In this document: positions 5,048 through 12,277 of the stretch, in pieces
Position numbering within the stretch: the first letter of the stretch is position 1
Layout: every line of letters begins with the position of its first letter
Assembly: GCA_003144275.1 (NCBI GenBank)
Contig: NJBF01000064.1
Location: 1 to 13,931, forward strand
Source of the DNA: Candidatus Heimdallarchaeota archaeon B3_Heim
GTDB taxonomy: Archaea > Asgardarchaeota > Heimdallarchaeia > Hodarchaeales > Hodarchaeaceae
Length of the DNA stretch: 13,931 nucleotides
Reading direction: 5' to 3'
Position numbers and translations under genes: made by a program
The notes under the pieces: generated by a model
Told to the model about the DNA's origin: nothing
The model's input: the letters and a program-made list of their open reading frames with translations, nothing else
Database searches by the model: none

Positions 5048-5581
5048 CTATTGGGCATAATAATAAATTTTACCGTGTGACTCTCTAAAATCAAGTAGAG
5101 AATCAGCCATAAATTTCTCAATATGAGTGCTTATAATCTTTTCATCTTCCCTCAAATGAGTTGCTAGATCTTCAATTGTCACTCCTGGAATCTTTTGTAC
5201 CTGTAATTCAAGTAATGCTACAGCTGTATCATTTTCTTCTTGTGAAAGGGTTTGCCGCATATTCCAGTTCTTTAAACTCCATTCTTTTCTTAATATAGTC
5301 AAAAATTCGCTTATAGCTCTCTTAATAAAATCATCCATACCGATCAACCCATACCGACTTTTAATTTGCCGACTAGAAATAATATTATGGATTTCATTAT
5401 TCAGATCTTCATCAATTTCTAGAGCGACTCCATGGTAGACTTTGTTAACACAAAATCGCAGTACATCAGCTTTGTTCTTCAGTTTGAATTTCTTTTGAAT
5501 ATTTTCAAACATTTTTGCGTCTTCTTTATCAAGGTCCACGCGAATGGGAAATTTGTGACTCTTTTCGCTATCATCCGCCAT
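5048..5581 (-). CDS. DNA-binding protein: N-terminal ribbon-helix-helix-like unit(s) plus C-terminal winged HTH
   Basis: IRVDLDKEDAKMFENIQKKFKLKNKADVLRFCV fits an RHH strand-helix-helix. A possible second unit ends in MDDFIKRAISEFL. VTIEDLATHLRED..IISTHIEKF....LL......GKIYYY fits a wHTH. Lies 20 nt upstream of the ParA ATG, so likely co-transcribed. Confidence 0.7.
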   Translation of the reverse strand: MADDSEKSHKFPIRVDLDKEDAKMFENIQKKFKLKNKADVLRFCVNKVYHGVALEIDEDLNNEIHNIISSRQIKSRYGLIGMDDFIKRAISEFLTILRKEWSLKNWNMRQTLSQEENDTAVALLELQVQKIPGVTIEDLATHLREDEKIISTHIEKFMADSLLDFRESHGKIYYYAQ

Positions 5582-5806
5582 CGATACTCACACTTACACA
5601 ACTAATTCTCATTAATGAACTAAGAAAAAAGATCCGTAAAACAATATTGGTTATTACGCATAATAAAATTAGCATCGTAAAGCTTATTAATACCATTGCA
5701 TTACAATAGTAACTATTAGAATATAATGATTAATACAATAAGAAAGATGGAAGATCTATGAGTGGTTATCATTTAGATTACCATTCACAACTCCAGAGGG
5801 CTTTCA

Positions 5807-6005: not shown

Positions 6006-6077
6006 GGAACTCATGACTAAATTTGTCAGATAACTCGTTAGAAGCGAGTTCTGGACAGGATGAGTCACACATCCGCT
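6006..6077 (-). ncRNA. Orphan omega-RNA (reRNA) 3' scaffold
   Basis: 31 nt identical to the tnpB 3' end (6047-6077 = 10714-10744). The hairpin has compensatory changes and the pseudoknot strand agtca is kept. The 5' and 3' limits are uncertain. Confidence 0.75.
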
Positions 6078-6192
6078 TCCAGAGAAAACCTATTCAAGGA
6101 TTGAATAAGTCTTCGAGGGACTCCTTGTTCCTATGGAGTTGACATTATCTCTTGATTCCTCAAATTTCAGTATCCACTGGTATTACATTCCT

Positions 6193-6228
6193 CGCCTTTG
6201 ACGGGTAACTCATCTAACGTAGTTACGA
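6193..6228 (-). pseudogene. tnpB: tnpB fragment just after RuvC-I (VTTLDELPVKG vs VTTSDGLLVKG)
   Basis: 32/36 nt identity to 10124-10159. Weaker similarity continues to ~6170 (cagtgg). Confidence 0.85.
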
Positions 6229-6507
6229 AGGAGCAACACCCAACCAGATTGTTTGGATTTAGTTCATCACCTCTATTTACTTGTATGGGAAGAAGAACCC
6301 CTTTTAAGGATGTTAGAGAGAGAGCGGTGAATATGACGAATACGACTTTGTCGGACAAATCATGCCATGGATTGGTTACTGGATTGTATGTTAAAACAGG
6401 TTTAGAACTAGGCATAATTTACACTGTGTCGGTTTTAAAATTCCGATAGGAATTTCCTGTATCCTTATACAAAGATAGAGAACCAATCAAAAATTCCGTG
6501 TTGATTA

Positions 6508-9287: not shown

Positions 9288-9355
9288 AAACAGTATCACA
9301 AAGTAATTCATTAAGAATCTTCCTCGTAATAATGCTCTTGTCGAATTCCTTTCCA

Positions 9356-9377
9356 CATGATCAAATTTGTCTGACAA
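9356..9377 (+). repeat. Left end motif catg-atcaa-atttgtc-t-gacaa (TIR-like)
   Basis: 16/22 match to the reverse complement of 10758-10779. The same consensus occurs at 6012-6033 and 6348-6369. Confidence 0.75.
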
Positions 9378-9462
9378 CGATATTTATTAGTATAGGCTAG
9401 GAAGAAAAAAGGTTCATTTTCGTCACATTTGTTATTTTCACTGATCTCTCTCTGTCTCGAGC

Positions 9463-9468
9463 TTATAA
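9463..9468 (+). promoter_or_regulatory. TATA-like box (TTATAA) for tnpB
   Basis: 22-27 nt upstream of ATG 9490, consistent with a leaderless archaeal transcript. Confidence 0.45.
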
Positions 9469-9489
9469 GAGCGAGTGAGCCTTACTGGA

Positions 9490-10788
9490 ATGGGAATGCG
9501 TACCAAAAAACACTCTCACCCCCAGTTAGCTATCCGAATGCAGATGAAACCACGGCCCATTTTTACTGATTTGTGCACCTGCGCCAAAAATCTGTATAAT
9601 CGTGCCACCTATGAGGTGCGCCAGGAATTCTTTAAGACAGGGAAATGGATACAATATATTAGCCTCTATCATCGCCTCAAGCACGAACCAGTGTATCTAG
9701 CATTAAAGGACATTTCGGATAGTTATTTACCGCAACAAGTCCTCCGGCAGGTGGAACAAATCTGGCGGAGCTTTTTTAACGGACTAAAAGCATGGAAAAC
9801 CGATCCGACCAAATTTCAAGCCCGTCCCCGAGAGCCGAGGTATAAACCCAAGAATGGGCTGCACATGCTGAACTTTCCCCGTCCACAGGTCCGAATTCGG
9901 GAGAAACAGATTCTTTTTGCTCGGAATCTCATGGTGCGCGGCTTTCCCACTTTTTCACTCGGAACCCTTCCATTAACTGCAGAAACGTGTGTGGGAGCTC
10001 GATTGGTACCGTATTATGATCGATTTGTGGTAGAATTACTCTATGAAGTGCAAGTTCACCCTTTTCCCACCACTGATTCGTCTTCTCCCCGAGCTATGGG
10101 AATAGATCTTGGTCTTAACAACCTCGTAACTACGTCAGACGGGTTACTCGTCAAAGGCGGGGTAGTTAAAACTATTAATCAGTGGTATAACAAACAACTT
10201 GCTCATTATCGGTCGATTGCAGCCACTCACAATCAACAGTTCTCCACTCACCGGATTCAAAGTCTTCAGCGAGGGCGGATGAACCGTCTGCAGAATTTCT
10301 TCCATCAAACCTCTCGGAGGATTATCACTTACTGTTTACAGCACAATATCGATACATTGGTCATCGGTTACAATGCGAGGTGGAAACAGCACTGTAACTT
10401 AGGAAAACGCACCAATCAGTCTTTTGTTCAAATCCCCTTCCTTAAATTCGTTCAGATGCTCGAGTATAAAGCGAAACTTGTGGGGATGACGGTAGTGCGA
10501 GTAAACGAGGCGTATACTTCCCAACAATGTAGTCAGTGTGGTTATGTAGACAAACGTAACCGAAAATCGCGCGGGTGTTTCTGTTGTCGTAAATGTGGTC
10601 ATCACCTGAATGCTGATTATAATGCCGCCCGTAATATCCTTCAGCGGTATATTAACCGCAGCCAAGTAATCCCTACAGTCAGTTCACCTTCATCGGTGGC
10701 TCACTTGCCGGATAGCGGATGTGTGACTCATCCTGTCCAGAACTATTTGCTAAATAGTTGTCTGACAAATCAAGTCATAACTCCATAA
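9490..10788 (+). CDS. tnpB: RNA-guided endonuclease TnpB with a rearranged RuvC-II site
   Basis: Residues numbered from GTG 9475: GIDLG (D211), LVIGY (G298 at the canonical Glu position), VNEAYTS (E345), Zn finger CSQC/CRKC, and NADYNAARNI (D381). Start is ATG 9490 or 9496. Confidence 0.96.
   Translation: MGMRTKKHSHPQLAIRMQMKPRPIFTDLCTCAKNLYNRATYEVRQEFFKTGKWIQYISLYHRLKHEPVYLALKDISDSYLPQQVLRQVEQIWRSFFNGLKAWKTDPTKFQARPREPRYKPKNGLHMLNFPRPQVRIREKQILFARNLMVRGFPTFSLGTLPLTAETCVGARLVPYYDRFVVELLYEVQVHPFPTTDSSSPRAMGIDLGLNNLVTTSDGLLVKGGVVKTINQWYNKQLAHYRSIAATHNQQFSTHRIQSLQRGRMNRLQNFFHQTSRRIITYCLQHNIDTLVIGYNARWKQHCNLGKRTNQSFVQIPFLKFVQMLEYKAKLVGMTVVRVNEAYTSQQCSQCGYVDKRNRKSRGCFCCRKCGHHLNADYNAARNILQRYINRSQVIPTVSSPSSVAHLPDSGCVTHPVQNYLLNSCLTNQVITP
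10640..10784 (+). ncRNA. omega-RNA scaffold overlapping the tnpB 3' end; guide predicted from ~10780-10785 onward
   Basis: Stems: gcggt/accgc; ggatg/catcc (10717-10733); long bulged hairpin 10734-10767 with core aactattt/aaatagtt. Loop tgtgact pairs with agtcata (10773-10779) as a pseudoknot. The 5' limit is a guess. Confidence 0.8.
10758..10779 (-). repeat. Right end motif (reverse complement tatg-acttg-atttgtc-a-gacaa)
   Basis: Inverted partner of 9356-9377. Lies inside the omega-RNA scaffold. Confidence 0.75.
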
Positions 10789-10840
10789 CAGGACTATAAG
10801 ATTTTTATAAACTCACGTTTACATTTTAGAAGACTGATAT

Positions 10841-12277
10841 ATGACCCATTTTTTAGATGAAATTCTGAACCCGAAATCGGTGGCATTCTTAGGAGCCTCA
10901 AATAACATAATAACGATGGGTACTGGCCAGTGTTATACTCTCAAGTCTCGATTTACAGGAAAAATCTTCCCGATTCATCCTTCCGAGAAAAGAATTCTTG
11001 GTCTTCCTGTATATCGCAAATTAGAGGATTTACCAGAAATTCCTGATCTTCTGATAATTGTCCTTCCTACTCGTCTTGTGACTGAATATCTCGAAGCTGC
11101 AGGAAAACTCGGTATTCCTTACGCCATTATTGTGTCAGCAGGTTTTGGCGAAGTTGGTGATGTCGACAGTCAAGAAAAATTGAATGAAATCGCCAATGAG
11201 TATAATATGCGTTTTATTGGGCCCAATTGTATTGGTGTCATAAATACTCATAGTTGTCATGGCATTCTGAATTGTACATGGTTTCCTTTCGAACTCCCCT
11301 CGGGACAGACAGGTAATATCTCCTTGCTAAGCCAAAGCGGATCGTGGATATCGCAAATACTAATATGGGCAGAAAGAAGGGGCATAAGAATTGGAAAATC
11401 GATTTCTGTGGGGAATGAAGCCAATACTAGTATTACTGAGTGTTTAGATTTTTTTCGCCAGGATGACCAAACTGAAGTAATAGGGATGTATCTTGAAGGG
11501 ATAAAGAGTGAAGGACGTAAATTTGTAGAGACATTACAGGCAACCGCTAAGGATAAACCAGTTGTCGTTTCATATCATGGAGGAACCACAGCGGGAGCTC
11601 GTGCAGGAATGTCTCACACAGCGTCATTAGGGGGTAACCCCTCAATCTATGAAACCATCTTCAAGCAATCAGGCGTCATACAAGCTGCCAATATGGAAGA
11701 ATTATTCGAATTTACTCATGCCTTTTCATTAGCCCATCCTCCCAAAGGAAATAGAATTGGACTAGTTACAAACTCGGGGGGACCAGCTGTGACATTAGCA
11801 GATTTATGTGAAAAAGAAGGACTTCGAGTAGTATCATTCTCTAATGATTTACAAAGTCAATTAAAAGAAATTATCCCTACTGTGGCTTCTGCTAACAATC
11901 CGATAGATTTAACCTTCGATATGAATTTCACTCTATTCTATGAAGACGTTCCTAAACTAATATGGCATTCAGGAGAAGTAGATGCCTTAGTTTTTTATGG
12001 AATTTTTGGTAGCAGTATGTTGGAGCGGTCTGTCCGCTATAACCATGGTGAATTCAAAGATCTTTTTCCGCTTGAAGGGATGAATTTTCTTGTAAAAGAA
12101 ACTCTAGACAGATTTTTTGAGTGGGTTCATACAAATAAGATACCTGTCCTAATTAGCTGTATTGATACTGCAGATAATCTCATTCCGATACTACAGGAGA
12201 ACAGGATTCCCGTATTTAAGTGGCCAGGCATGACAGTAAAAGCAATGAAGGCACTAGTAGAATATTATTCTAGATAA
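10841..12277 (+). CDS. Acyl-CoA synthetase (NDP-forming) alpha-type subunit / CoA-binding protein
   Basis: LNPKSVAFLGAS, FIGPNCIG, SQSG, SVGNEA, phospho-His motif SHTASLGG, TNSGGPAV and ANNPIDLT. No fused ATP-grasp domain. Confidence 0.92.
   Translation: MTHFLDEILNPKSVAFLGASNNIITMGTGQCYTLKSRFTGKIFPIHPSEKRILGLPVYRKLEDLPEIPDLLIIVLPTRLVTEYLEAAGKLGIPYAIIVSAGFGEVGDVDSQEKLNEIANEYNMRFIGPNCIGVINTHSCHGILNCTWFPFELPSGQTGNISLLSQSGSWISQILIWAERRGIRIGKSISVGNEANTSITECLDFFRQDDQTEVIGMYLEGIKSEGRKFVETLQATAKDKPVVVSYHGGTTAGARAGMSHTASLGGNPSIYETIFKQSGVIQAANMEELFEFTHAFSLAHPPKGNRIGLVTNSGGPAVTLADLCEKEGLRVVSFSNDLQSQLKEIIPTVASANNPIDLTFDMNFTLFYEDVPKLIWHSGEVDALVFYGIFGSSMLERSVRYNHGEFKDLFPLEGMNFLVKETLDRFFEWVHTNKIPVLISCIDTADNLIPILQENRIPVFKWPGMTVKAMKALVEYYSR

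Follow-up and report, generated by a model that had tools for sequence, protein, structure and literature searches.

The tnpB gene and its catalytic site

The window analysed here is a whole contig (C69, 13,931 bp) of Candidatus Heimdallarchaeota archaeon B3_Heim, whose genome assembly comprises 3.95 Mb in 103 contigs and is 94% complete. On the forward strand it carries an insertion element with tnpB as its sole gene. The product is probably a TnpB that acts as an RNA-guided endonuclease on DNA and belongs to the alternative-glutamate class (RIIr-5; TnpB2; Ealt D-phi-G), and the element appears to target CATG and to specify an omega-RNA at its right end, a reading that draws on sequence, on a predicted structure and on analogy with characterised systems. 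The gene and the residues of its active site are listed below, with residue numbers counted from the ATG at 9490.

9490–10788, + strand: tnpB open reading frame (ORF), 432 amino acids (aa) long when started at ATG 9490; ATG 9496 or GTG 9475 could serve as start instead.
10105–10107, + strand: RuvC-I catalytic Asp D206 (GID-LG), from motif reading and alignments (D211 when counted from GTG 9475).
10366–10368, + strand: Gly G293 at the canonical RuvC-II Glu position (LVI-G-YN), from alignments; end of strand beta-4.
10507–10509, + strand: alternative catalytic Glu E340 (VN-E-AYTS), from alignments; two residues past beta-5.
10528–10596, + strand: CxxC...CxxC zinc finger (C347, C350, C366, C369), from motif reading.
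10615–10617, + strand: RuvC-III catalytic Asp D376 (NA-D-YN), from motif reading and alignments.

The longest ORF runs from the GTG at 9475 to 10788 (+), and 9490 is an in-frame ATG. Homologues begin with MGMRTKK or MRTKK, which makes 9490 or 9496 the likely start. The product matched the NCBIfam family model NF040570 (guided_TnpB) with 223.6 bits, above the cut-off of 100 for this hidden Markov model, as well as the Pfam families OrfB_IS605 (PF01385, 67.2 bits, cut-off 30.5) and Cas12f1-like_TNB (PF07282, 85.2 bits, cut-off 26.3). A weak Pfam match to RuvX was also seen (PF03652, E 0.0027). The nearest homologues, 65–93% identical, belong to metagenome-assembled genomes (MAGs) of Candidatus Hodarchaeales, Hodarchaeota or Heimdallarchaeota archaea. 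Next come Promethearchaeota proteins at about 45% identity, and the nearest bacterial and Altiarchaeum proteins are at most 35% identical. Judged by these closest homologues, the host genome is that of an Asgard archaeon of the Hodarchaeales.

Alignments made with phmmer and with profiles to the solved Cas12f structures placed LVI-G-Y opposite IQM-E-D, so that the Gly falls at the catalytic Glu, and VN-E-AYTSQ opposite IN-P-RHTSQ or ID-P-QYTSQ, so that the Glu falls at a Pro. GI-D-LG was found opposite the Asp that is carried as Ala in the dead AsCas12f construct 7wju, and NA-D-YN opposite the RuvC-III Asp of the Cas12f chains. E340 lies 47 residues after G293, and its spacing to the first Cys of the finger is E-x6-C. 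The initial annotation had described both Asp as intact, the RuvC-II Glu as replaced by Gly with another Glu 47 residues downstream (VNEAYTS), and the zinc finger as complete, all of which the alignments and motifs bear out. Its statement that canonical enzymes usually carry Pro at the downstream position holds for Cas12f and NADxN-type relatives, but not for the ISDra2-like chain 9yyg, where the profile alignment puts an Arg opposite the alternative Glu. The residue numbers that it gave (211, 298, 345 and 381) fit the ORF counted from GTG 9475, but not the start at 9490 that it named, from which they become 206, 293, 340 and 376.

Conservation of these positions was measured in 237 homologues, consisting of 98 close ones and 139 distant representatives (31–49% identical), from a search that gave 18,050 matches at E<=0.001. 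The RuvC-I Asp was kept in all 237, the Gly at the canonical RuvC-II position in 236, the alternative Glu in 235 and the RuvC-III Asp in 228. Within the RuvC-III motif NADYN, the N, A and D were each kept in at least 90% of homologues, and the zinc-finger Cys were retained in 91–95 of the 98 close ones. Because the Gly/alternative-Glu pattern is near-invariant across both sets, it is neither a chance occurrence nor the quirk of a single copy.

Predicted structure and selection

An AlphaFold2 model was built from an alignment of 146 sequences and reached a mean predicted local distance difference test score (pLDDT) of 89.4 and a predicted template-modelling score of 0.84. Only residues 1–4 and 392–432 were disordered, the tail having a pLDDT below 50. 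In the model, beta-1 spans residues 202–207, with the catalytic Asp near its end, beta-4 spans 289–293, with the Gly at its end, beta-5 spans 334–338, with E340 two residues later, and the RuvC-III Asp opens a helix at 375–388. Structural comparison with VIA-align gave tied Z-scores of 21–23 over 320–363 residues for ISFba1 TnpB, ISDra2 TnpB, AsCas12f and mimivirus Fanzor2, and Foldseek gave a TM-score of 0.75 to 8h1j.

Beta-4 and beta-5 run parallel and side by side in the RNase H fold, so a residue just past beta-5 should come to lie beside the end of beta-4, and this is where we infer E340 to be in the model. The layout of RIIr-5 proteins has been described as RuvX-like, with the Glu on a loop (Altae-Tran 2023, PMC10691335). 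The modelled placement of E340, together with the weak RuvX match, echoes this description.

The ratio of non-synonymous to synonymous substitution rates (dN/dS), computed over residues 1–390 for all ten pairs of five full-length paralogues, was 0.07–0.12, with dS ranging from 0.24 to more than 2. Against the 93%-identical paralogue on contig C44 it was 0.12. These values show that the TnpB protein is under strong purifying selection.

Relation to known TnpB and Fanzor groups

RIIr-5 is a published major clade in which Gly has taken the place of the RuvC-II Glu and a loop-borne Glu makes good the loss (Altae-Tran 2023, PMC10691335). The alternative Glu is essential in a Fanzor, where the E467A mutant is dead (Jiang 2023, PMC10530073), and the Thermoplasma volcanium TnpB cleaves DNA with the target-adjacent motif (TAM) NTGAC and without collateral activity (PMC10530073). 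Proteins of the Ealt type were further split by their RuvC-I motif, D-P-G being found in Fanzors and cyanobacterial pro-Fanzors and D-phi-G in the rest (Yoon 2023, PMC10711439). By its motifs, the protein encoded in the window is a member of this RIIr-5, TnpB2 or Ealt D-phi-G group. The relocated-Glu arrangement is thus one already described in a large TnpB clade, and what is new here is a member in an Asgard host. The initial annotation had placed the gene in a known and widespread subclade, which agrees with the published major clade, and the findings that it named as established are documented in the first two of these reports.

It had also called the catalytic site Fanzor-type. For RuvC-II, with its Gly and alternative Glu, this description fits, but RuvC-I reads D-L-G and not the D-P-G of Fanzors and pro-Fanzors. 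D-L/I/F-G was present in 98 of 98 close homologues, whereas D-P-G occurred in only 2 of the 139 distant representatives. A FastTree phylogeny of all 237 sequences, a set comprising homologues and no named Fanzors, grouped the Asgard sequences in a single clade (99 tips, support 0.99), to which the D-P-G sequences were not sister. In sequence searches mimivirus Fanzor2 (9b0l) scored no better than ISDra2 TnpB (phmmer E 1.7e-8 and 3.4e-8, respectively), and a search of the PDB with the family profile did not return Fanzor2 at E<=1e-5. Because of the D-L-G motif, the placement in the tree and the Fanzor2 scores, the term Fanzor-type is best limited to RuvC-II, and on sequence criteria the protein is not filed as a Fanzor relative.

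Extent, ends and copies of the element

The features of the element outside the active site are the following.

9356–10779, + strand: whole tnpB-only insertion element, 1,424 bp, from DNA homology to paralogous copies.
9356–9378, + strand: left end, opening with a CATG target copy followed by the 23-bp arm of the inverted repeat, CATGATCAAATTTGTCTGACAAC, from copy comparison.
10105–10170, + strand: nucleotide-constrained coding block, from third-codon-position identity; kept in miniature copies.
10663–10779, + strand: right-end, omega-RNA-like module with two hairpins, ending in the inverted-repeat arm 10757–10779 (...AAGTCATA).
10780–10800, + strand: candidate guide segment in the flank, directly 3' of the right end, proposed on the model of those TnpB omega-RNAs that have been characterised.

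DNA homology between copies starts at 9355/9356 and ends at 10778/9. The element has a GC content of 44.7%, versus about 35% in its flanks, and the tnpB stop codon lies 7 nt past its right end, so that the ORF reads through into the flank. Its ends are imperfect 23-bp inverted repeats. The left one is CATGATCAAATTTGTCTGACAAC and the consensus right one GTTGTCTGACAAATTTAGTCATG, and in the consensus copies the reverse complement of the right end matches the left end at 20 of 23 positions. A scan with the family end motif (CATGAYYAAATTTGTCNGACAA) gave 67 matches in this genome and 62 in its closest relative; 10 of 24 genomes of the order had matches, and a reversed control gave none.

Two clean insertion polymorphisms were found, with miniature copies in the relative G013 and empty sites in this genome. 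A single CATG is present in the empty sites, and in the filled sites CATG flanks the insert on either side. Only one of 39 copies has a T just before the left-end CATG (binomial P 3e-6). The right end, in contrast, always reads T-CATG, the base after ...TCAT being G in 29 of 32 copies.

This genome (G000) contains five or six full-length copies (69–94% protein identity), together with about 14 ORF-less miniatures of about 362 bp, hereafter called minis, and many solo right ends. One of the minis, a diverged one, lies in the window at 6006–6369 (− strand), about 3 kb from the full-length copy and in the opposite orientation, with its right-end module at 6013–6077 and the internal block, described below, at 6190–6228. 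Three 33-bp palindromes are fusions between a left and a right end (G000 C8:64499–64531, C35:1462–1494 and C50:11147–11179); they are explicable by a deletion across an 11-bp direct repeat, TTGTCTGACAA, present in both ends. An interval of 2.6 kb between a left-end and a right-end motif on contig C8 was rejected as a further copy, since its other strand encodes an M48 peptidase of the host. In related MAGs, every full-length copy has the tnpB-only layout, and the neighbours differ at every copy. Recent movement of the element family is evident from the insertion polymorphism between this genome and its closest relative.

Right-end module and constrained coding block

The last 115 nt or so of the element (10663–10779) are dispersed alone in about 30 copies. 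They contain two hairpins with compensatory changes, in which pairing is kept while sequences differ between copies (stems ACUAUUU/AAAUAGU, ACUCUU/AAGAGU, AUGCAGU/ACUGUAU and ACUAGUU/AACUAGU), and the RNA fold z-scores relative to shuffled sequences were -2.1 and -2.7. The start of the module coincides with the onset of disorder in the model, at residue 392, and the ORFs of paralogues stop at varied points within it. Among paralogues dN/dS in the tail was 0.4–1.3 with a low dS, which indicates a constraint on the nucleotides rather than on the protein. Past the right end, flanks diverge completely in all copies. By analogy with other TnpB systems, the module would be an omega-RNA scaffold and the adjacent flank its guide.

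A second constrained region was found inside the RuvC-I coding sequence. The block at 10105–10170, which encodes GIDLGLNNLVTTSDGLLVKGG, has a third-codon-position identity of 0.84–0.91 among paralogues, versus about 0.5 elsewhere. About 45 nt of it are the sole internal piece retained in all the ORF-less minis, and full-length copies from other genomes show the block almost unchanged. It includes a small outer helix in which U-A is exchanged for C-G between subfamilies. The block may represent a second module of the omega-RNA, a site used by a transposase or a tract of gene conversion.

Transposases in the order

The end-motif scan of the 24 genomes of the order revealed no element longer than about 1.43 kb, and no transposase was present among the neighbours of a homologue on five other MAG contigs. 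Y1 TnpA was found only as fragments, in 3 of the 24 genomes. IS607 TnpA was present in 5 of the 24, beside TnpBs that are 33–38% identical to that of the Hodarchaeales element. Two such units, L060 (G013:C54) and L059 (G007:C52), consist of a serine recombinase with a MerR-type helix-turn-helix followed by a 33–38%-identical TnpB, and the tnpB of the G013 unit looks frameshifted. These IS607 units were rejected as the partner, their ends being unrelated to those of the element family.

The sole resolvase of this genome, on contig C2, was examined as an IS607 TnpA and discarded, since it is a classic resolvase with an HTH_7 domain beside a reverse transcriptase. The contig in question is small (L028, G000:C2:1–7731) and encodes, in addition to the resolvase, a 1,593-aa ORF and an RVT_1 reverse transcriptase; possible identities for it are a retroelement and a diversity-generating cassette.

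History of the window copy

Three congeneric genomes were found to carry right-end remnants resembling ATAGTCATGGTG at the orthologous intergenic site (L030 in G013, L031 in G018 and L032 in G003), and one of them also has a left-end remnant. This suggests that the insertion is older than the divergence of those species and that its body was later deleted in the relatives. The right-end arm of the window copy has two substitutions, reading AAATCAAGT where the consensus is AAATTTAGT.

Neighbouring genes and other TnpBs

The element lies between two divergent genes, a methyltransferase-like one (−), whose likely ATG is 45–70 nt from the left end, and a CoA-binding or ligase-like one (+) starting at 10841. 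In five other Hodarchaeales MAGs (L047–L051, about 5267–5788) a homologous element abuts, with no gap, a short ORF of the H2TH (Fpg/Nei) type, and it may have inserted into or just upstream of an H2TH gene there. A tRNA scan of the window found no tRNA.

The same genome has a second TnpB family of about 430 aa, 24–25% identical to the present one, with at least six copies (C61:21677–22672, C48:22993–23937, C82:50800–51744, C96:23789–24742, C63:47017–48003 and C38:58092–59033), and a single TnpB of 38% identity (C8:90336–91448). Among the papers searched, none pairs 'Hodarchaeales' with 'TnpB'. Queries combining Asgard or Heimdallarchaeia with TnpB led to unrelated papers and to a general survey, which mentions other Asgard TnpBs linked to Cas1 (PMC10691335).

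Proposed function and alternatives

We propose that the Glu past beta-5 reaches across to two Asp residues, one on beta-1 and one in the helix that follows the finger, that the Gly of beta-4 makes room for it, and that the resulting D-E-D site is active. The right-end transcript would act as omega-RNA, with the flanking DNA past the right end as guide, and the nuclease would cut guide-matching empty sites bearing CATG, thereby helping the element to persist. Such persistence through cutting of empty sites has been shown for ISDra2-type TnpB. Our hypothesis for the TAM is (not T)-CATG: by rejecting a T before CATG, it would spare the element's own right-end junction, T-CATG, and still allow empty sites to be cut. 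Mobility would depend on a transposase supplied in trans, and could proceed through an IS607-like crossover at CATG, by an IS605-like route or in some other way.

Several observations weigh against this proposal. The right junction of the window copy is CATA instead of CATG and has about 5 nt fewer than in the three related genomes, which may leave this copy immobile and puts its guide register in doubt, though the gene is intact. The tail contains a motif, G-x-V-x-x-P-V (residues 408–417), that is conserved in at least 90% of the 146 homologues, bacterial ones included, which may mean that the tail is more than incidental coding. At gathering thresholds Rfam gave no hit anywhere in the window, and a search of 10300–10860 with E relaxed to 5 was negative as well. 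Finally, this 94% complete genome contains no Y1 TnpA, Cas1 or DDE_3 and no IS607-type TnpA.

Replacement of the canonical RuvC-II Glu by Gly, and the position of the element in a divergent promoter region between the methyltransferase-like and CoA-binding protein genes, could point to a catalytically dead TnpB, exapted as an RNA-guided repressor or regulator of the TldR kind. We regard this as very improbable, because the D/alternative-E/D triad is conserved, the protein is under purifying selection, the family has moved recently and the class has been shown experimentally to be active. TnpBs that have been exapted occur in one copy, fixed next to a partner gene, whereas this one is multi-copy and mobile, has intact ends and has different neighbours at every copy. 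The conclusion of the initial annotation, an active nuclease and not a TldR-like regulator, is thus supported, though not proven, by motifs, selection and mobile context, and by a confidently modelled TnpB fold. Just as improbable is an Asgard pro-Fanzor, that is, a direct archaeal relative or ancestor of the eukaryotic Fanzors. It would fit with the alternative Glu common to Fanzors, with the inverted ends and the duplicated-looking 4-bp target, since Fanzor1 and Fanzor2* transposons have inverted repeats at their termini (TIRs) together with duplications of the target site (TSDs), and with a host from an order among the closest archaeal kin of eukaryotes. However, none of the 98 Asgard homologues has D-P-G in RuvC-I, the two distant representatives that do are not sister to the Asgard clade, neither phmmer nor the family profile favours Fanzor2, and the structural Z-score to Fanzor2 ties with those to ordinary TnpBs and Cas12f. 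The host is moreover neither a eukaryote nor a giant virus, and no serine recombinase of the IS607 type occurs in the element or in the genome. The D-L-G motif and the tree argue against a special ancestry link to Fanzors.

An alternative to which we give appreciable weight, while considering it unlikely, concerns the window copy only: it could be an old, immobilised resident whose intact protein may still act, for instance in trans on minis, but which no longer transposes or homes. In its favour are the remnants that three congeneric genomes carry at the orthologous site, the two arm substitutions, the CATA end with its missing nucleotides and the lack of a detected transposase in the genome. 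Its full-length ORF, with a dN/dS of 0.12 relative to the C44 paralogue, and the recent movement of the family speak against it, and the remnants could instead reflect repeated targeting of the same CATG. It is less probable still that the family represents a distinct, tnpB-only kind of TnpB transposon, with 23-bp inverted ends, a targeted and apparently duplicated CATG palindrome, a transposase other than the known TnpB partners (Y1, IS607 serine recombinase, IS630 DDE and Cas1), and a bipartite guide RNA whose second module lies in the RuvC-I coding sequence. If this were so, the archaea most closely related to eukaryotes would harbour a prokaryotic parallel to the Fanzor-carrying transposons with TIRs and TSDs.

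For the alternative-glutamate nuclease that we favour, the interest lies in an active site that links a subset of prokaryotic TnpBs to the eukaryotic Fanzors and that occurs in the lineage of archaea closest to eukaryotes. The relocated Glu has been tied to a loss of collateral cutting of single-strand DNA, a useful property in genome editing (PMC10530073), and the well-conserved, multi-copy Hodarchaeales family would offer compact (about 420 aa), mesophilic candidates for this purpose. Around the gene, the main interest is in the enzyme that moves this CATG-targeting element with inverted ends, and in the role of the RuvC-I coding block.

Comparison with known systems

With RIIr-5 or TnpB2 proteins the Hodarchaeales TnpB shares the Gly at RuvC-II, a conserved alternative Glu about 45–50 residues downstream and just before the finger, the NADxN motif of RuvC-III, a length of about 400–430 aa and an occurrence mostly in tnpB-only mobile elements; it is at most 35–49% identical to the non-Asgard members. 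The Thermoplasma volcanium TnpB differs in its element, which is of the IS605 type with a Y1 TnpA and the TAM TGAC, whereas the Hodarchaeales element has inverted ends, CATG on both sides and no transposase nearby. Fanzor2 and pro-Fanzors have the alternative Glu at the same spacing, six residues before the finger, and the fold of Fanzor2 is similar (9b0l, Z 21.4, 363 residues aligned). They carry D-P-G in RuvC-I and are linked to an IS607 serine recombinase, in contrast to the D-L-G, the recombinase-free element and the archaeal host found here, and the Hodarchaeales protein is no closer to Fanzor2 in sequence or structure than to canonical TnpBs.

ISDra2 TnpB (8exa, 8h1j) is alike in domain order and fold (Z 21.4–21.9). 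It is also alike in a guide RNA at or beyond the right end that overlaps the 3' end of the ORF, for which the right-end module is here a candidate by analogy, and in a likely role in element retention by cutting of the empty site, as proposed above. It differs in having the catalytic Glu on beta-4 and DRDxN in RuvC-III, and its element has asymmetric hairpin ends and a Y1 TnpA, inserts 3' of TTGAT and does not repeat the target at its right end. IS200/IS605 elements in general have a Y1 (HUH) TnpA and asymmetric hairpin ends, and insert 3' of a short target without duplication. The Hodarchaeales element resembles them in that CATG is single in empty sites, but differs in its inverted-repeat ends and in the CATG that also terminates the right one.

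IS607 elements use a serine-recombinase TnpA, and one crossover sequence recurs in the target and at each of the two junctions, with a fixed right-flanking base. CATG at both junctions and the nearly fixed G as first base past the right end are reminiscent of this arrangement, whereas no copy of the Hodarchaeales element has a TnpA. Inverted or symmetrical termini with the same short sequence at both junctions are likewise found in TnpB elements linked to DDE-6 or IS630 (Altae-Tran 2023) and in Fanzor1 and Fanzor2* elements with TIRs and TSDs (Yoon 2023). Unlike the DDE-6/IS630 and IS607 elements, the Hodarchaeales elements examined in this and related genomes have no DDE, serine-recombinase or Cas1 gene inside. 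The minis, for their part, resemble PATE-like or omega-RNA-only miniatures in keeping both ends and the right-end RNA module with no ORF, and differ from them in that they also keep the piece of about 45 nt from the RuvC-I coding region.

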